In this document: positions 1-24,789 of the stretch, in pieces
How the letters are laid out: each line of letters starts with the position of its first letter
Position numbering within the stretch: the first letter of the stretch is position 1
Origin: Cylindrospermopsis raciborskii Cr2010
GTDB taxonomy: Bacteria > Cyanobacteriota > Cyanobacteriia > Cyanobacteriales > Nostocaceae
DNA length: 32,000 nt
Direction of reading: 5' to 3'
Assembly (NCBI RefSeq): GCF_003367075.2
Contig: NZ_CP065936.1
Coordinates: 2,670,001-2,702,000 of the forward strand
The notes under the pieces: model-generated
Told to the model about the DNA's origin: nothing
Database searches by the model: none
What the model saw: the letters and a program-made list of their open reading frames with translations, nothing else
Made by a program: the position numbers and the translations under genes

Positions 1-2103
1 AAGAAAAAGAGCAAGAGTAGTAAAAATACCAAGTGGTATGAACAAGAACCAGAACAACTATCCTTGGGGAAAAATTTACCCAAAGGGGGAATTTTTCATT
101 TTCTGTTGGGAGATCCGGGTATGGGGAACTATACAGATAAAATCATAAAAAAGATGACTGGGGAGAACCTCAAGAAAATAGATAATTGGCGAAAAGAGTT
201 TTGTCAAGAATTAACAGACGAGCAAGGGAGCTATGCCCATACATTAAGTGAGAGAATTGATAAACTGTGGCATCATTATGCCCAAGAGTTAAAAAGAATT
301 AGAAAAAGAACCACAGACAGTCTAAATATATGGGGACAGGAGGAAGAAAAAAAGCAAGAAATAGCCCTGGAGAAGAAAGATAAGATTCATGACCAGGAGA
401 AACTTGCAGAAGGGATAGAGAACGCCACATCCTATAGGAGATTAAAGCTAGTCATGGACTACTGGTGCGCCCTTTGGTTTTGGCCCATAGAAAAAGCAGA
501 GGAATTACCAGACAGAGAGCAGTTTTTTTGTGACCTAGCTATTATTTTAGGCGAAACAGAAATGTTGCTGGATAGTAACAGACAGCTATCTCTATTTCCT
601 GAGACCCAAACCCCACAAGAGGGGGAAGAGTTTATTAATCAATGGGGATTTGTTAACTTAAACAAATTAAAGCAGAAGAATATTCGGTTACAGATAGTAG
701 ATGAAGTTGTTAACAACCAGCGATTTTTCCATTGGGAACTAGAATTTGCAGATATATTTTGGGAGAGAGGAGGTTTTGACCTCATATTAGGAAATCCCCC
801 CTGGATAAAGATGGAATGGAAAGAAGGGGGAATTTTAGGGGATTATGACCCCAGGATAGCCATCCGCAACCTATCAGCGAGTGAATTAGCGAAAAAGCGG
901 GAGGAGCTTTTTGATAGACATCCTGGATTGAGGGCTGCATATATACAAGAGTATGAAGAGATAAGCGGAACCAAGAATTTTCTCAATGCGGAACAGAATT
1001 ATCCATTGCTAAAAGGGTCACAAACTAATTTATTTAAGTGTTTTTTACCCCAGGGGTGGAGATACACCAGAGAAGGAGGAGTGTCAGCTTTTTTACATCC
1101 TGAGGGGGTTTATGATGACCCCAAGGGGGGAAGGTTACGTAGGGCAATTTATCAGCGATTGCGTTATCATTTTCAGTTTCAAAATCAATATATTCTGTTT
1201 CCTATAGGACATAGGGTTAAATACAGTTTAAATGTCTATGGTTCAGAGAAATTACCTGAATTTACAACCATAGCTAACCTGTTTACCAGTAAAACCGTGG
1301 ATGAGTGTTTAGAGCATGATGGTAAGGGGGAGGTGAAAGGAATTAAAGATGAATCAAATAAGTGGAATGTACAGGGACACAAAGAGAGAATTATCACTGT
1401 AAATAGGGAGAGACTAAATCTATTTTCCCAACTCTATGATGATGAGGGAACCCCAGGGGAAGAAGCGCGACTGCCAACCTTACATTCCCAGCAGTTAATG
1501 GGGGTACTGGAGAAATTTGCAGCCCAAGAAAGGCGCTTAGGTGATTTACAGGGTGAGTATTTTGCTACAGAAATGTGGCATGAAACCAATTCGCAAAAAG
1601 ACCAAACTATTAAGCGTAACACCCAATTTGCCCAGGGTGCAGAACAGTTGATATTATCTGGCCCCCATTTCTTTGTGGGTAATCCTTTAAATAAAACCCC
1701 CAGAAAGGTTTGTAAGACCAAAAGTGATTATGATGTTATTGACCTGACCCAAATTCCCCCAGATTATCTCCCCCGCACCAATTACGTCCCAGACTGCACT
1801 CCCAGAGATTATCTTGACCGCACCCCCCGTGTTCCCTGGGGTGAGCAAAAACCCGTCACTGATTTTTATCGGGTTGCTTATAGAAGAAGGTTAAGTCAAT
1901 CGGGTGAAAGAACCTTAATCCCAGCAATTATCCCTAAACAAGTTGGACATGTTCATACTTGTATTTCTTTCACATTTGAAAATACCAAACATCTCATATC
2001 AGTTACTGGACTATCATCCTCCTTACCCTATGATTTTTTTATCAAAACAACAGGAAAAGGTGATTTTTATAATAGACATCTCCGAAAAAGAATCAAAGTG
2101 TGA
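1..2103 (+). pseudogene. N6-adenine DNA methyltransferase of the Eco57I / type IIG (RM- or BREX PglX-like) class, 5' portion; truncated by the window edge and disrupted by an IS insertion
   Basis: Frame 1 has no stop from nt 1, so the gene starts left of the window; the listed start at 64 is only a TTG inside it. The catalytic motif IV is NPPW (LILGNPPW, nt 793-804), preceded by FFHWELEFADIF, which is typical of gamma-class amino-MTases fused into large RM proteins. The native frame ends at nt 2073. The last 10 codons (RHLRKRIKV*) are read from the IS end. Confidence 0.75.
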
Positions 2104-3214
2104 TAAAATAATATGAAATGGTATTTTTGGCAACTTATTATGAGCAACATATCTGAATATATCCAGAATAATCCTCACGAATCACACCGTTTATTGGGTC
2201 TGAAGTATGAGCAGTTACAGCAACTTTTGGAAAAAGCCATAAAACTGCATCATCAGAAACAACAATTGGTTGAATCAAAAAAAACCCGAATTATTCAAGG
2301 CGGTGGAGGGCGCAAACCCAAATTATCACCGTCGGAGCAAATAATCTTAACATTAACATATTTACGGCAGTTAACAACATTTCAGCTACTAGGTATTCAA
2401 TTTGGAGTAAGTGAAACAACTGCAAATGATATCTTTAACTATTGGTTGCCAATAATAGGAGAATTATTGCCACCAAGTTTGCTAGAACAGGTAAAAAAAA
2501 ACTCCAGTGATTACGAAGTCGTTAAAGAAATATTAACAGAATTTGAGTTAATAGTGGATAGCTATGAACAGCCTATAGACAGACCTGGAGAGTACCAAGA
2601 ACAAAAAAAATATTATTCAGGTAAAAAAGCCTGTCATACTAGAAAAAGTCAACTAATCGTTTTACCAAATGGTAAAGATATTGTTGATGTAGTAGCGGGT
2701 AAACCTGGTCCAAAAAGTGATGTAAATTTATTCCGTGAAACCAGAAATATATTTGATAAAAAACAAAAATTTAGTGGTGATAAAGCTTATCAAGGAGAGG
2801 AGTTAATGAAAACTCCGACAAAAAAACCTAAAAACCAAGAATTAACGTCTGAACAAAAAGAAAAAAATAAAGAGTTAGCTTCCGAACGAATTTTTGTTGA
2901 ACATTTAATTCGTGTAGTGAAAATATTCAGAGTGGCACAAGAAAGATTTCGATTAAATTCAAGTAAGTATGAACAGGTAATCATGACTATTTGTGGACTT
3001 GTTCGTTTCCGAATGGGAACCTACTTATTTTAGTTATCAAGATTTGGACTTGGCTAAAAATAAATTATCTCACATAGGTGTTATCTTTTGGTTAATTCCC
3101 AACAAGAGGCATCTCTAACGCTTATTTTAGCATACCAGTCAGCTACTTTTGTATTGGGGTGTCTCACCTTAAAAAGTAGTATTGGTAACGCTTTGGCTAT
3201 TTCCGGAGATGTCT
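2074..3214 (+). mobile_element. Insertion sequence (1141 bp) with a single DDE transposase; IS5-superfamily / Harbinger-like (DDE_Tnp_4 type)
   Basis: There are perfect 11-bp terminal inverted repeats: AGACATCTCCG at 2074-2084 and CGGAGATGTCT at 3204-3214. An imperfect match extends to about 25 bp. A 3-bp direct repeat AAT (2071-2073 and 3215-3217) flanks the element. One transposase ORF lies inside. Confidence 0.85.
2113..3033 (+). CDS. DDE transposase (HTH_Tnp_4 + DDE_Tnp_4-like)
   Basis: The N-terminal HTH segment reads GRKPKLSPSEQIILTLTYLRQLTTFQLLGIQFGVSETTANDIF. The catalytic triad context looks intact: IVDSYEQPIDRP, YSGKKACHTRKSQ, SGDKAYQG and SERIFVEHLIRVVKIFRV. The true start may be the ATG at 2141 (MSNISEY). 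Confidence 0.85.
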   Translation: MKWYFWQLIMSNISEYIQNNPHESHRLLGLKYEQLQQLLEKAIKLHHQKQQLVESKKTRIIQGGGGRKPKLSPSEQIILTLTYLRQLTTFQLLGIQFGVSETTANDIFNYWLPIIGELLPPSLLEQVKKNSSDYEVVKEILTEFELIVDSYEQPIDRPGEYQEQKKYYSGKKACHTRKSQLIVLPNGKDIVDVVAGKPGPKSDVNLFRETRNIFDKKQKFSGDKAYQGEELMKTPTKKPKNQELTSEQKEKNKELASERIFVEHLIRVVKIFRVAQERFRLNSSKYEQVIMTICGLVRFRMGTYLF

Positions 3215-3853
3215 AATGAATCATTCTCCCAATTTCCCTATCCTAATGTTATATCCTCATTACACATACGTACCCTAGCACTAAACTGCCTAACACAATA
3301 CTACGGGGATTTATGGGAGGAAAACTGGCATAATGAATACACCCAAGAGAGTTGGAGTAAAAGAGAGGATCCGCGATTAAACGGTCAGTTCTTTAGTCAA
3401 CTTACACCCTTTTGGCAAAGGAATAATGCCTTACGTACGGATTATGACCGCAGACAGGCTTTATTAGAAATAGATGTATTAGCTGCTATGAGCTTAGGTA
3501 TGACCCTAGATGAATTGAATACCATCTATCGAGTCCAGTTTCCTGTCATGCAACAGTACGAAAAAGACACCTATTATGACATGAATGGTAGAATAGTGTT
3601 TACGACTAATAAAGGATTAGTGGGGGTAGGTTTACCCCGCAAAGGTAACCCTAAAACTAAATCCCCGGGATGGGAAGATATATGGGAAGATATAAAAGAT
3701 ATGACTACTGGTACAGTTGAAGTACCTATTGTCAATCAGACCTTATCTAATAATCCTGCGAACCAAAGTATCATCTATCAAGCACCCTTTGAGAAATGTG
3801 ATAGGATAGAGGACTATAGAAAAGCGTGGGATTACTTCCGGTGTTTAGATTAA
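3182..3853 (+). pseudogene. 3' portion of the same disrupted methyltransferase / type IIG-like gene
   Basis: Native sequence resumes at 3215/3218. Deleting 2074-3217 joins ...GKGDFYN to ESFSQFPYPN... in the same frame. The first 11 codons of the listed ORF are IS-derived. Confidence 0.75.
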
Positions 3854-6279
3854 AAAGAAGAGCGCCAGTTTTCCTCCCAGGAGAATACACATCCTGCGAG
3901 GGTTTTCCGTGCGATCGCATAACTACACAAGTTTAATAGGATGGGTTAGCAGTAGTGTAACCCATGGGGGTGTTGGGTTTCATGCTTCAACCCAACCTAC
4001 GTTTATCTTCCGGTGTTTAGATTAAAAAGAAGAGCGCCAGTTTTCCTCCTAGGAGAATACACATCCTGCGGGGGGTTTCCGTGCGATCGCATGACTACAC
4101 AAGTTTAATAGGATGGGTTAGCAGTAATGTAACCCATGGGAGTGTTGGGTTTCATGCTTCAACCCAACCTACGTTTATCTTCCGGTGTTTAGATTAAAAA
4201 GAAGAGCGCCAGTTTTCCTCCTAGGAGAATACACATCCTGCGAGGGTTTTCCGTGCGATCGCATGACTACACAAGTTTAATAGGATGGGTTAGCAGTAGT
4301 GTAACCCATGGGGGTGTTGGGTTTCATGCTTCAACCCAACCTACGTTTATCTTCCGGTGTTTAGATTAAAAAGAAGAGCGCCAGTTTTCCTCCTAGGAGA
4401 ATACACATCCTGTGGGGGTTTCCGTGCGATCGCATGACTACACAAGTTTAATAGGATGGGTTAGCAGTAGTGTAACCCATGGGGGTGTTGGGTTTCATGC
4501 TTCAACCCAACCTACGTTTATCTTCCGGTGTTTAGATTAAAAAGAAGAGCGCCAGTTTTCCTCCCAGGAGAATACATATCCTGTGGGGGTTTCCGTGCGA
4601 TCGCATGACTACACAAGTTTAATAGGATGGGTTAGCAGTAGTGTAACCCATGGGGGTGTTGGGTTTCATGCTTCAACCCAACCTACGTTTATCTTCCGGT
4701 GTTTAGATTAAAAAGAAGAGCGCCAGTTTTCCTCCTAGGAGAATACACATCCTGCGGGGGGTTTCCGTGCGATCGCATGACTACACAAGTTTAATAGGAT
4801 GGGTTAGCAGTAGTGTAACCCATGGGGGTGTTGGGTTTCATGCTTCAACCCAACCTACGTTTATCTTCCGGTGTTTAGATTAAAAAGAAGAGCGCCAGTT
4901 TTCCTCCTAGGAGAATACACATCCTGCGAGGGTTTTCCGTGCGATCGCATGACTACACAAGTTTAATAGGATGGGTTAGCAGTAGTGTAACCCATGGGGG
5001 TGTTGGGTTTCATGCTTCAACCCAACCTACGTTTATCTTCCGGTGTTTAGATTAAAAAGAAGAGCGCCAGTTTTCCTCCCAGGAGAATACACATCCTGCG
5101 AGGGGTTTACGTGCGATCGCATAACTACACAAGTTTAATAGGATGGGTTAGCAGTAGTGTAACCCATGGGGGTGTTGGGTTTCATGCTTCAACCCAACCT
5201 ACGTTTATCTTCCGGTGTTTAGATTAAAAAGAAGAGCGCCAGTTTTCCTCCCGGGAGAATACATATCCTGTGGGGGTTTACGTGCGATCGCGTGACTACA
5301 CAAGTTTAATAGGATGGGTTAGCAGTAGTGTAACCCATGGGGGTGTTGGGTTTCATGCTTCAACCCAACCTACGTTTATCTTCCGGTGTTTAGATTAAAA
5401 AGAAGAGCGCCAGTTTTCCTCCTAGGAGAATACACATCCTGCGAGGGTTTTCCGTGCGATCGCATGACTACACAAGTTTAATAGGATGGGTTAGCAGTAG
5501 TGTAACCCATGGGGGTGTTGGGTTTCATGCTTCAACCCAACCTACGTTTATCTTCCGGTGTTTAGATTAAAAAGAAGAGCGCCAGTTTTCCTCCCGGGAG
5601 AATACATATCCTGTGGGGGTTTACGTGCGATCGCATGACTACACAAGTTTAATAGGATGGGTTAGCAGTAATGTAACCCATGGGAGTGTTGGGTTTCATG
5701 CTTCAACCCAACCTACGTTTATCTTCCGGTGTTTAGATTAAAAAGAAGAGCGCCAGTTTTCCTCCTAGGAGAATACACATCCTGCGAGGGTTTTCCGTGC
5801 GATCGCATGACTACACAAGTTTAATAGGATGGGTTAGCAGTAGTGTAACCCATGGGGGTGTTGGGTTTCATGCTTCAACCCAACCTACGTTTATCTTCCG
5901 GTGTTTAGATTAAAAAGAAGAGCGCCAGTTTTCCTCCCGGGAGAATACATATCCTGTGGGGGTTTACGTGCGATCGCATGACTACACAAGTTTAATAGGA
6001 TGGGTTAGCAGTAATGTAACCCATGGGAGTGTTGGGTTTCATGCTTCAACCCAACCTACGTTTATCTTCCGGTGTTTAGATTAAAAAGAAGAGCGCCAGT
6101 TTTCCTCCTAGGAGAATACACATCCTGCGAGGGTTTTCCGTGCGATCGCATGACTACACAAGTTTAATAGGATGGGTTAGCAGTAGTGTAACCCATGGGG
6201 GTGTTGGGTTTCATGCTTCAACCCAACCTAAGTTTATCTTCCGGTGTTTAGATTAAAAAGAAGAGCGCCAGTTTTCCTC
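3835..6279. repeat. Tandem array of 14 full units of 171/172 bp plus a terminal 42 nt; noncoding
   Basis: Units start at 3835, 4007, 4179, 4351, 4522, 4693, 4865, 5037, 5209, 5380, 5552, 5723, 5895, 6066 and 6238 (partial). Each unit holds one HIP1 site and two hairpins: ATGGGTTA-N9-TAACCCAT and GTTGGGTT-N9-AACCCAAC. The supplied track has no ORF of 60 aa or more on either strand between 3854 and 6243. Confidence 0.97.
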
Positions 6280-6300
6280 AGGGAAAATTCTGAAGATTTT

Positions 6301-6329
6301 GAGGGGCGTGCATTTAGAAAATGCCCCTC
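6301..6329. other. Stem-loop GAGGGGC...GCCCCTC (7-bp GC-rich stem plus an inner ATTT/AAAT pairing)
   Basis: Inverted repeat read directly from the sequence; function unknown. Confidence 0.4.
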
Positions 6330-6367
6330 CAAATATCCCAAAACCCTTGAAATAACTGATTCATCCT

Positions 6368-6397
6368 TTGACGGAAAACGTTTACCGTCAACCTTTT
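6368..6397 (+). terminator. Candidate intrinsic terminator downstream of the array
   Basis: TTGACGG-N10-CCGTCAA is followed by CCTTTTAC. The stem is 7 bp and the T-tract is short, so this is weak. Confidence 0.3.
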
Positions 6398-6460
6398 ACG
6401 AACCGGGAACCGAACATGAAACGTGCCTAGATGAGAGCGTGCCTTGCGATCTCGCGTAGC

Positions 6461-6480
6461 GAGTGCTGCGCAATCGCCCA
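6461..6480. repeat. 20-nt dispersed motif GAGTGCTKCGCAATCGCCCA, copy 1
   Basis: The motif recurs at 7040-7059 in the same orientation and at 11443-11463 inverted. A diverged form (GTGCTTCGAAATCGC, inverted) sits inside the 104-nt repeats at about 9987 and 10213. Confidence 0.8.
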
Positions 6481-7969: not shown

Positions 7970-8037
7970 TAGGATAAGTGGGTGAGTGGAATTAAACACA
8001 AGATGAACGTAGGTTGGGTTGAGGAACGAAACCCAAC
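7970..8037. repeat. 68-nt composite repeat (arm L1 + GTTGGGTT-N9-AACCCAAC hairpin), copy 1
   Basis: It matches 9896-9963 at 67 of 68 positions, in direct orientation. The sequence continuing to about 8075 (GCCCCCATGGGCATCCTA...) is homologous to the reverse complement of the 172-bp array unit. Confidence 0.9.
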
Positions 8038-8092
8038 GCCCCCATGGGCATCCTACAAATAATTGTGCCTCCCTACTTACTGGTAAATGAAA

Positions 8093-9895: not shown

Positions 9896-9963
9896 TAGGA
9901 TAAGTGGGTGAGTGGAATTAAACGCAAGATGAACGTAGGTTGGGTTGAGGAACGAAACCCAAC
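9896..9963. repeat. 68-nt composite repeat, copy 2
   Basis: It is a direct repeat of 7970-8037 with a single A/G difference. The two copies bracket the AAA-ATPase gene. Confidence 0.9.
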
Positions 9964-10263
9964 AAACCAACAGGATATATATAAATGCGATTTCGAAGCA
10001 CACCCTTGTCATTATATACTACTAAATAAGACCACAGTGATTGTAGCATGGGTTGCTCGAGAGGGATCTCAACGCCAGTTGGCAGAAAGATTCAAGGTCA
10101 GCTTATCATTTGTGAAAAATTTAGTACGTCGTTATAGCGATCGTTAGTAAAGGAGTAATCGTAGGTTGGGTTGAGGCACGAAACCCAACAAACCAACAGG
10201 ATATATATAAATGCGATTTCGAAGCACACCCTTGTCATTATATACTACTAAATAAGACCACAG
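9934..10263. repeat. 226-bp-period tandem duplication (1.46 copies); the shared 104-nt segment is hairpin + arm R2
   Basis: 9934-10037 and 10160-10263 are identical at 103 of 104 positions. The 122-nt spacer carries a transposase relic. Confidence 0.9.
10038..10147 (+). pseudogene. Relic of the N-terminal HTH region of an IS630-family transposase
   Basis: The translation ...EGSQRQLAERFKVSLSFVKNLVRRY resembles the conserved HTH of cyanobacterial IS630 transposases. No catalytic domain follows, and a stop occurs at 10145-10147. Confidence 0.55.
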
Positions 10264-13981: not shown

Positions 13982-14237
13982 AAGTTTACATATTTAGAGT
14001 TGAGTTATAGTATCATGTAAGTCCTACAACAGATGCAATTTCAGCTATTATTTATTTTCATTTGGTGGGGTTGACTATTGACCTTTGGATGTGATACCCT
14101 AACAATGGAAGTCTTTGCACTTTTCCACAGATGCTCACACTCCATTATACTTAACCCTCATATTGCCACATTTTTATCCCCTCGACCATAAAAAAAGTTA
14201 TCTCATCCCCCTAATTTTTTTTATCCCTATATAAATA

Positions 14238-14865
14238 AATGTAGATAGATAAATTTGATTATGCACTTATATCCGGTTGGTTTGTTGGGTTTCGTTCCTC
14301 AACCCAACCTACAATGAATGTAGGTAGATAAATTTGATTATGCACTTATATCCGGTTGGTTTGTTGGGTTTCGTTCCTCAACCCAACCTACAATGAATGT
14401 AGGTAGATAAATTTGATTATGCACTTATATCCGGTTGGTTTGTTGGGTTTCGTTCCTCAACCCAACCTACAATGAATGTAGGTAGATAAATTTGATCATG
14501 CACTTATATCCGGTTGGTTTGTTGGGTTTCGTTCCTCAACCCAACCTACAATGAATGTAGGTAGATAAATTTGATTATGCACTTATATCCGGTTGGTTTG
14601 TTGGGTTTCGTTCCTCAACCCAACCTACAATGAATGTAGGTAGATAAATTTGATCATGCACTTATATCCGGTTGGTTTGTTGGGTTTCGTTCCTCAACCC
14701 AACCTACAATGAATGTAGGTAGATAAATTTGATCATGCACTTATATCCGGTTGGTTTGTTGGGTTTCGTTCCTCAACCCAACCTACAATGAATGTAGGTA
14801 GATAAATTTGATCATGCACTTATATCCGGTTGGTTTGTTGGGTTTCGTTCCTCAACCCAACCTAC
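14238..14865. repeat. Tandem array of 8 x 79 bp, noncoding
   Basis: Units start at 14238, 14317, 14396, 14475, 14554, 14633, 14712 and 14791. Each holds GTTGGGTT-N9-AACCCAAC and a junction hairpin CCTACA-N5-TGTAGG. There are only two variable positions: GATTATG vs GATCATG, plus an A/G in unit 1. Confidence 0.97.
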
Positions 14866-14904
14866 GTTGATCTTATATTTAATTCCACCCACCCACTTAT
14901 TCCT
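14866..14904. repeat. Inverted, diverged copy of arm L1 capping the 79-bp array
   Basis: The reverse complement AGGAATAAGTGGGTGGGTGGAATTAAATATAAGATCAAC aligns with AGGATAAGTGGGTGAGTGGAATTAAACACAAGATGAAC at 7971-8008. Confidence 0.75.
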
Positions 14905-24135: not shown

Positions 24136-24789
24136 ATGAGGATTATAGAACTTTTAGTACCCAGGATGGCAATTAGGGGCAATTCCTGGAATTATCTAAG
24201 TTTGCTGCCAATTGTACTTTGTTGTTCACTAATGTTGCTCTTAGTAGGTTGTCAAAGCAAGGACAGAACCAAAGATAGTATAGTTCAAGCGAGAGTGGTA
24301 AGAGTAGTAAGCGGGCAAACCCTAGAAGTGGCAAAAATAGGAGATCCGACAAATTCCGTATCCTCCGTGCGATTAATTGGTTTAGACGCCCCCGACCTGC
24401 GTCAGTACCCTTGGGGAGAAGATGCCAGAAAATTATTAGAAAAGTTGATTCAAGATGCCAATAGTGATAATACTACCAATAATAATACCAATAGCGCCCA
24501 AATCAAACTAGCCCAAATCAAACTAGCCCAAATCAAACTAGAATTTGATTTACAAACCCAGGATAAATTTGGACGCAATCTAGCTTATGTTTGGAAGGAT
24601 CAAGTGCTAGTGAACGAGCAAATCATCAAACAGGGGTATGCTCTATTTGCAGGAAGATCCCCCAATCACAAGTACGATTTACGCCTGGAAAATGCCCAAC
24701 ACTGGGCTAGACTCATGGGGGAAGGGATTTGGAATCCAGAAAACCCCTTACGTCTGACTCCCGGTCAATTTCGTCGGATCAACGGTTGA
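24136..24789 (+). CDS. Staphylococcal-nuclease (SNase/thermonuclease)-like lipoprotein
   Basis: It has a lipobox LLLVGC after a hydrophobic segment. SNase-like blocks are VVRVVSGQTLEV...VRLIGLDAPD and FGRNLAYVW...NEQIIKQGYA. The start could instead be ATG 24166. Confidence 0.75.
   Translation: MRIIELLVPRMAIRGNSWNYLSLLPIVLCCSLMLLLVGCQSKDRTKDSIVQARVVRVVSGQTLEVAKIGDPTNSVSSVRLIGLDAPDLRQYPWGEDARKLLEKLIQDANSDNTTNNNTNSAQIKLAQIKLAQIKLEFDLQTQDKFGRNLAYVWKDQVLVNEQIIKQGYALFAGRSPNHKYDLRLENAQHWARLMGEGIWNPENPLRLTPGQFRRING

Follow-up and report, generated by a model that had tools for sequence, protein, structure and literature searches.

Probable local amplification of selfish palindromic-repeat DNA and its flank behind a methylase gene of Cylindrospermopsis raciborskii

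What produces a 2.4-kb noncoding tandem array directly behind a bacterial gene, with the last codons of that gene repeated along the array? This question is raised by a stretch of 32,000 nucleotides (nt) from the chromosome of Cylindrospermopsis raciborskii Cr2010 (NZ_CP065936.1, positions 2,670,001 to 2,702,000; here called the window, with positions counted from its first nucleotide), in which such an array occupies positions 3835-6279 of the plus strand, at the 3' end of a gene for an Eco57I-like N6 DNA methylase. An initial annotation had offered three explanations, namely, tandem genes for small RNAs (sRNAs), as at the NsiR1 locus of Anabaena PCC 7120; a MITE (miniature inverted-repeat transposable element) amplified with its flank through unequal crossing-over; and an iteron-like or nucleoid-organising array. 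The second of these is right in substance, as indicated by the MITE core of the unit, by a one-unit progenitor form, and by states of 1, 14, and 16 units in related genomes. We propose that the array is probably a local, strain-variable amplification of selfish repetitive extragenic palindromic (REP) and MITE DNA together with its flank, comparable to the bacterial interspersed mosaic elements (BIMEs) and to clusters of REP doublets forming hairpins (REPINs), and expanded by unequal exchange between direct repeats.

Tandem Repeats Finder reports the interval as one array with a period of 172 bp, 14.2 copies, and 96% matches, and a period of 343 bp fits it better still (98%). The anchor CTTCCGGTGTTTAGATTAA occurs 15 times at a spacing of 172 or 171 nt, giving 14 units and a 42-nt partial unit, after which unique DNA begins; the count of 14 is that of the assembly as deposited. 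The phasing is (A-B)14-A. Segment A (42 nt; first copy at 3835-3876, plus strand, beginning with CT) comprises the final 19 nt of the methylase coding sequence (CDS), which ends at 3853 with YFRCLD and a stop codon, and the 23 nt downstream of it, while the terminal A (6238-6279, plus strand) is contiguous with the native downstream DNA. Segment B (130 nt in its first copy, 3877-4006, plus strand) always carries a HIP1 site, GCGATCGC (3911-3918 in the first copy), and two perfect 8-bp stems, ATGGGTTA/TAACCCAT (hairpin 1; 3941-3965 in unit 1, plus strand) and GTTGGGTT/AACCCAAC (hairpin 2; 3972-4000 in unit 1, minus strand). Only 12 of the 172 columns in the unit alignment vary, the 1-nt indel counted among them, and the longest stop-to-stop stretch is 58 codons on the plus strand and 37 on the minus strand, the sole listed open reading frames (ORFs) inside the array being of 42 amino acids (aa). 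The extent and phasing of the array, its high unit identity, the content of B, and its lack of coding potential are thus as the initial annotation had described them.

The origin of most of B becomes apparent from dispersed relatives of its hairpins. A pattern spanning both hairpins has at least 120 matches, in genomes of Microcystis, Nostoc, Calothrix, Leptolyngbya, Nodosilinea, and other genera, and the consensus of 121 copies is an element of about 121 bp with sharp ends and terminal inverted repeats (TIRs): TAAGTAGGGAGGCACAATTATTTGTAGGATGGGTTAGCGGTAGCGTAACCCATGCGGGCGTTGGGTTTCATGCTTCAACCCAACCTACGTTCATCTTATATTTAATTCCACCCACCTACTTA. The element begins with TAAGTAGG and ends with CCTACTTA, and its dispersed copies have a TA target. 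Its core consists of two related hairpins in inverted orientation with GTAG tags at their feet (GTAG-hairpin 1 ... hairpin 2-CTAC), as in a REP doublet or REPIN; the GTAG tag of hairpin 1 sits at columns of the consensus that the search pattern did not force. Alignment to this consensus identifies the right two-thirds of B as the MITE core, positions about 13-99, with both TIRs gone. Hence, what the array repeats is the remnant of a MITE rather than a MITE proper. The MITE origin suggested in the initial annotation therefore stands, but with the refinement that what was amplified is a REP/REPIN-type hairpin doublet. Within the array, hairpin 2 retains the form of a GTAG-tagged REP-type palindrome (GTAG-GTTGGGTT-loop-AACCCAAC, minus strand) in all 14 units, and the tag of hairpin 1, GTAG in the MITE consensus, has decayed to ATAG. 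An apparent change from CTCCTAGGAG to CTCCCGGGAG was considered as a symmetry-preserving covariation and rejected, the asymmetric CTCCCAGGAG being about as common as either symmetric form in the related strain GIHE 2018 introduced below.

The same hairpin has been active elsewhere in the window: hairpin 2 (GTTGGGTTTC...CAACCCAACCTAC) is present in 25 copies versus none expected, with solo copies at 8009, 9935, and 10161. One of these belongs to a solo full-length MITE with both TIRs (7975-8079, minus strand), which lacks hairpin 1, that is, the 18-nt segment GGTTAGCAGTAGTGTAAC. Hairpin 1 may for this reason be a very small repeat that inserted into the element. In this it resembles, by description, the small dispersed repeats of Nostoc punctiforme, which Elhai et al. 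(2008) reportedly characterized as mobile, very short, able to form hairpins, and prone to nest within other repeats. A second array lies 8 kb from the first, with 8.0 units of 79 bp (14234-14865) followed by the MITE right end (14866-14899; the whole at 14234-14899, plus strand); its unit runs from the MITE left end to hairpin 2-CCTAC. The corresponding array of GIHE 2018 has 18.0 units (L128 16140-17551), and the second-array unit, when compared with plasmids by BLAST, gave chance matches alone. Finally, a pair of 104-nt direct repeats of flank plus element, which we call D1, is found at 9934-10037 and 10160-10263 (9934-10263, minus strand). Its two copies are 99% identical and 226 bp apart, start with CTGTGG, and end with hairpin 2-CCTACG, the MITE right end being kept solely by the downstream copy in the minus-strand sense; in GIHE 2018, the D1 hairpins are 376 bp apart. 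The initial annotation had considered an array of this size and identity to be out of the ordinary for a bacterial chromosome; the second array shows that such arrays are not unique in this genome. The possibility it had set against its own idea, namely, that the unit is one of many selfish repeat expansions, largely applies, as the same hairpin also seeded the second array and the 104-nt duplication.

Three copy-number states of the main locus are available. On plasmid NZ_CP060823.1 of Cylindrospermopsis curvispora GIHE-G1 (locus L001), an intact orthologous methylase gene, about 96% identical, is followed by a single unit and 42 nt, that is, A-B-A, and then by the same downstream sequence as in the window. 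The same chromosomal locus of Raphidiopsis raciborskii GIHE 2018 (VHLJ01000001; L128), assembled from PacBio RS II and Illumina data at 63x (PMC7005129), was retrieved by exact-protein look-up with the neighboring ATPase; an intact methylase of 1633 aa is followed there by an array of 16.2 units, and the flanks share 99.6% identity with those of the window. The same kind of look-up gave no match for the Uma2 protein or the pentapeptide protein. Copy number, whose variation between strains the initial annotation had raised as a question, is thus 1 (C. curvispora plasmid), 14 (window), and 16 (GIHE 2018), and in these three the array always stands behind the orthologous methylase. We conclude that the A-B-A form predates the split of the R. 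raciborskii and C. curvispora copies, that it grew to 14 to 16 units on the chromosomes of R. raciborskii, and that the number of units is still in flux, an insertion sequence (IS) having struck the methylase gene of the window strain later.

The internal order of the units speaks to how this expansion proceeded. Identical units stand at non-adjacent places in the window array (units 3, 7, 10, and 12), and its units 9 to 14 are one dimer repeated three times. The variable sites are common to the window and GIHE 2018, but they differ between the two arrays in combination and order, and in both strains the outermost hairpin copy is mutated (CCTAA and CCTAG). Taken with the 343-bp period, the identical non-adjacent units, the reshuffled variants, and the mutated edge hairpins point to repeated unequal exchange.

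Beyond these genomes, a pattern for the A segment has no match in the GTDB representative genomes and, in metagenomes, one real match (L124) and two chance matches (L125 and L126). The real one (OGWL01000934.1; 2760-2830) is a deletion derivative, lacking about 32 kb, of a GIHE-G1-like plasmid: a gene for a REP-associated tyrosine transposase (RAYT) is truncated just past its HUH motif and joined, through a 3-nt ATG microhomology, to a point 4 nt upstream of hairpin 2, and the deletion takes out the entire helicase-methylase island. We had considered this sequence as proof that hairpin 2-A-y', with y' the downstream region described next, exists independently of the methylase, and we rejected it as such, L124 being a plasmid deletion derivative.

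The comparison further permits a reading of the locus before B arrived. The original sequence is x-A-y', with x the upstream DNA, and B is the intruder; it interrupts the loop of a small palindrome native to the site, TTTTCC TCAG GGAAAA (6272-6287), at every A-B junction. The A-y' stretch is native and contiguous, because one y'-type repeat module spans the A-y' boundary elsewhere on the plasmid and because the methylase ends at its natural position, its homologues stopping 4 to 9 residues past the conserved DYRxAWxxF motif. The region y' itself (6280-6479, plus strand) has a hairpin at 6301-6329 and is built of repeat modules of about 116 nt and about 30 nt, which are also found at L001 14813-15317 and 18376-18642 and at L127 1953-2481. 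These modules flank two 99%-identical RAYT-like genes (Pfam Y1_Tnp) on the GIHE-G1 plasmid as well, one of which (L001 13815-14564, minus strand) is absent from the plasmid annotation table. Homology to the plasmid island stops at 6479, within a repeat of the type GCGATC..GTAG..GCAATCGCC. A weak Rfam match to Yfr20 at 6308-6390 (18.3 bits versus a gathering score of 44; E=4.6) is most likely due to chance. The left part of B was also considered as a diverged copy of y', and this was rejected, its alignment score being equal to that of shuffled sequences.

A break beside hairpin 2 joined to a duplicated upstream flank is not confined to this locus. Of 119 dispersed MITE copies compared, about 91 retain the right end, and at least 10 independent Microcystis copies without it are all cut between CCTACGTTC and a following T (L006, L014, L021, L033, L039, L046, L066, L080, L100, and L112), which hints that the element has, 4 nt past the CTAC tag, a second defined end or a site of cleavage. 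In several copies lacking the right end, the element is followed by a direct copy of its upstream flank and then by an apparently empty TA target, in the arrangement x-(A-B)n-A-TA-y. This architecture recurs in D1, in L014 and L046 (n=2), and in L021, L039, L100, L101, and L051 (n=1), the last belonging to another MITE subfamily; the length of A is 18 nt in L021, 28 nt in L014, 31 nt in L100, about 36 to 41 nt in L046, about 42 nt in L101 (where it has diverged), and more than 60 nt in L039. Twelve independent cases from several genera have readable boundaries, and in 7 of them CT is exactly where the duplicated flank begins: CTTCC in the main array, CTGTG in D1, CTGG in L014, CTTG in L021, CTTC in L046, CTGA in L100, and CTTA in L051. 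With a background CT frequency of 0.058 in these loci, such a count has, by our own arithmetic, a binomial probability of about 1e-6. In Escherichia coli, the RAYT enzyme TnpA_REP requires a GTAG-tagged REP and cleaves single-stranded DNA at C^T, both next to the REP and at linker sites whose distance from it can reach more than 400 nt (PMC3333891). A flank starting at CT and a break a few nucleotides past the hairpin fit this cleavage rule and may reflect an enzyme of the same type. RAYT-like genes with the Pfam Y1_Tnp domain are encoded 1.6 kb and about 32 kb from the plasmid A-B-A.

Taking these findings together, we postulate a history in two steps. The first would have been the entry of B into the loop of the native palindrome with direct duplication of the 42-nt upstream flank; its product, A-B-A, is seen on the plasmid. 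The break would have lain just 3' of hairpin 2 and been joined to a C^T site 42 nt upstream of the insertion point, plausibly by an HUH enzyme of the RAYT/TnpA_REP type, an origin that we favor because in this and at least six further independent cases the break lies a few nucleotides 3' of a GTAG hairpin and the flank starts at CT. The second step, from A-B-A to 14 to 16 units, is seen as a change in copy number, and it would have proceeded through unequal homologous exchange or replication slippage between direct repeats, with the 42-nt copies of A as the first substrates and whole units and dimers as later ones in a turnover that would still be under way. The intact distal A-y' junction could have arisen through integration of a circle of A and B into an empty allele or through excision of a terminal intact copy. 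As to function, selfish REP/MITE DNA most likely left the array as a by-product, which is at most co-transcribed as a hairpin-rich 3' untranslated region (UTR) of the methylase gene.

Several observations sit uneasily with this account. The left 47 nt of B (CTAGGAG...GCGATCGC...GACTA) match only the orthologous plasmid locus. The A-B junction (CCTC/CTAGG) is no C^T site, the junction of the second array (CCTAC/AATG) departs from the CT rule, and in intact Microcystis copies the break on the element side corresponds to C^A. Further, the distal A-y junction remains an apparently empty site; it may reflect the excision of a terminal intact copy or the entry of an A+B circle into an empty allele. 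No RAYT gene turned up in the window or in 120 sampled 8-kb MITE loci when the plasmid RAYT served as a tblastn query, and the RAYT-like genes of the plasmid are flanked by a different repeat family and not by hairpin 2. Transcription may start inside the units, and exchange of the RecA type and amplification driven by a transposase would look alike in the resulting sequence. A bolder extension, which we regard as possible rather than probable, is that the array and its relatives are natural footprints of a cyanobacterial RAYT. Such an enzyme would make one cut a few nucleotides 3' of a GTAG hairpin and another at a C^T site in the upstream flank, at a distance that can exceed 100 nt, and the two ends would be joined, plausibly as an A+B circle; the genome being polyploid, this product would go back into an empty allele. 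The outcome would be x-(A-B)n-A-y with host sequence captured in it, in this instance a defence gene's stop codon.

If a RAYT could make A-B-A, it might also have made the whole array, through rolling-circle-like re-replication or integration of a multimeric A+B circle in place of homologous exchange. TnpA_REP can join cleaved ends into tandem BIMEs, and both rolling-circle-like and circle-based models of BIME amplification have been proposed (PMC3333891); an (A+B)n circle recombining within A would yield precisely x-(A-B)n-A-y and leave the two native junctions undisturbed, and the junctions at C^T next to a GTAG hairpin, as well as the RAYT-like genes near the plasmid A-B-A, accord with it. 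We nevertheless consider it unlikely, given that the window has no RAYT gene, that the tag of hairpin 1 has decayed to ATAG, that repeats of 172 bp suffice as a RecA substrate, and that homologous exchange would be expected to leave just such shuffled variants, 343-bp dimers, and decayed units at the edges. A different kind of alternative would accept the amplification and add a role, the array having been co-opted as a block of REP hairpins, either as a 3' UTR element that stabilizes or attenuates the methylase mRNA or as a protein-binding or topological element, as in BIME-2 with gyrase. With the stop codon directly before it and the first terminator-like hairpin (6301-6329) only after it, the array would be co-transcribed; it is kept behind the intact methylase of GIHE 2018, and REPs of E. 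coli have roles of this type (PMC3333891), by analogy with which a BIME-like binding of proteins may apply here. A copy number ranging from 1 to 16 with fast turnover, the persistence of the array behind an IS-destroyed gene, and a similar array at an unrelated locus nevertheless make such co-option improbable.

The two other options of the initial annotation fare worse. Tandem genes for unit-length structured sRNAs, on the model of NsiR1, would account for the high similarity of the units and their stable hairpins, and A contains TCCGG, which resembles the DIF+ motif, TCCGGA. However, there is no -10 element at the proper distance from TCCGG, the hairpins belong to a mobile element of many genera, and the C. 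curvispora plasmid has a single unit. No Rfam family is found in the array at the gathering score or at E<=10, and a consensus scan of both strands of 3835-6279, with -10-only promoters beyond its reach, found no sigma-70-like promoter or intrinsic terminator. The z-scores of the unit fold are modest (-2.1 for the plus strand and -1.0 for the minus strand) and are due to the two local hairpins. Thus, we give the sRNA explanation very little weight. An iteron, partition-site, or nucleoid-organising array has no supporting context, with no rep or par genes nearby and a unit of 172 bp as opposed to short binding repeats of 17 to 22 bp. Near-identical tandem repeats are also difficult to assemble, and the array or its copy number might be an artefact. 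This strikes us as most improbable, since 16 units stand at this place in a close relative assembled independently from PacBio and Illumina data, the 12 variant sites form a non-periodic pattern across the units, the marks of exchange are present, and a one-unit form occurs on the plasmid of another species.

The methylase gene is disrupted, as had been noted at the outset. Its middle part (64-2067, plus strand) is collinear with the intact gene of NZ_CP060823.1 as far as 2067, and the ORF at 64-2103 matches Pfam Eco57I (1.2e-9). It is followed by an IS of about 1.17 kb (2068-3234, plus strand; transposase ORF at 2113-3033, with matches to Pfam DDE_Tnp_4 at 4e-32 and HTH_Tnp_4) and then by the C-terminal part of the CDS (3235-3853, plus strand; stop codon TAA at 3851-3853). 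The IS is missing from both relatives (L001 and L128), whose methylases are intact, with a length of 1630 to 1633 aa, and hence the insertion is recent; it is this IS, upstream of the array, and not the array that inactivated the methylase. A homologue search with the C-terminal fragment found no relative above 69% identity. This part of the CDS also contains a perfect 12-bp tandem duplication (ATGGGAAGATAT, 2.1 copies; 3670-3694), which inserts the residues WEDI relative to all homologues and the plasmid orthologue. The methylase island (window 1-6479) is about 96% identical to GIHE 2018, versus 99.6% for the housekeeping flanks at 6480-32000, and is likewise about 96% identical to the plasmid of another species, which suggests that the island was horizontally exchanged or is an old allele. 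The neighbors of the array are the methylase, helicases, a pentapeptide protein, Uma2, and the ATPase. A further tandem repeat, a perfect 15-bp sequence in 3.1 copies (GCCCAAATCAAACTA), lies at 24496-24541, within the ORF at 24136-24789.

These observations have practical and more general uses. Large noncoding arrays in Raphidiopsis and Cylindrospermopsis can be annotated as REP/MITE-derived amplifications, and their hypervariability between strains makes them potential typing markers as well as likely breakpoints of short-read assemblies. How REP clusters arise has been left open in the literature on E. coli and Pseudomonas, and one locus in three copy-number states, together with the same CT-start architecture in Microcystis, provides testable data on their origin. 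If the array and its relatives are indeed footprints of a transposase, the stages with n=1, 2, 14, and 16 in public genomes would make the formation of REPs and BIMEs testable outside the enterobacteria.

Several parallels are offered by known repeat systems. The NsiR1 array of Anabaena PCC 7120 (PMC4030482, PMC9045159) is also a set of tandem direct repeats in a heterocystous cyanobacterium; unlike it, the unit in the window has no promoter or terminator of its own and no Rfam match, stands in another context, is three times longer, and is built from a mobile element. GTAG-tagged REPs have been described in filamentous and unicellular cyanobacteria, including Anabaena and Nostoc, with the families GTAG-12, GTAG-15, and GTAG-16 (PMC3733652), and the hairpins of the array resemble these short GTAG stem-loops by description rather than by sequence. 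In E. coli, tandem BIME copies at a given locus are nearly identical and their number depends on the strain (PMC3333891). Like BIME-2 and the atypical BIMEs, the array consists of tandem GTAG palindromes at an intergenic or 3' position, in near-identical copies of strain-variable number, with an upstream junction compatible with C^T (PMC3333891). In contrast, the Cylindrospermopsis unit is some four to five times longer (172 bp) and contains, besides 47 nt of unrelated DNA, 19 nt of CDS and a stop codon, its hairpins lie in a decayed TIR-type MITE, its arrays have up to 14 to 16 units, and its RAYT is only putative. Closest in scale are the REPIN clusters of Pseudomonas fluorescens SBW25, tandem near-identical REP doublets with flanks whose GI to GIII arrays reach 12 units of 184 bp (PMC3116915; for REP clusters, also PMC3733652), a period nearly the same as that of the 172-bp unit, which is likewise a doublet plus flank. 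That system belongs to another phylum and has an unrelated REP sequence, whereas here an n=1 progenitor and two expanded states are found at one locus. With its GTAG stem-loop, dispersed in high copy number and arranged as an inverted doublet that is repeated in tandem with its flank in strain-variable number, the array is a member of the known REP/BIME/REPIN-cluster kind.

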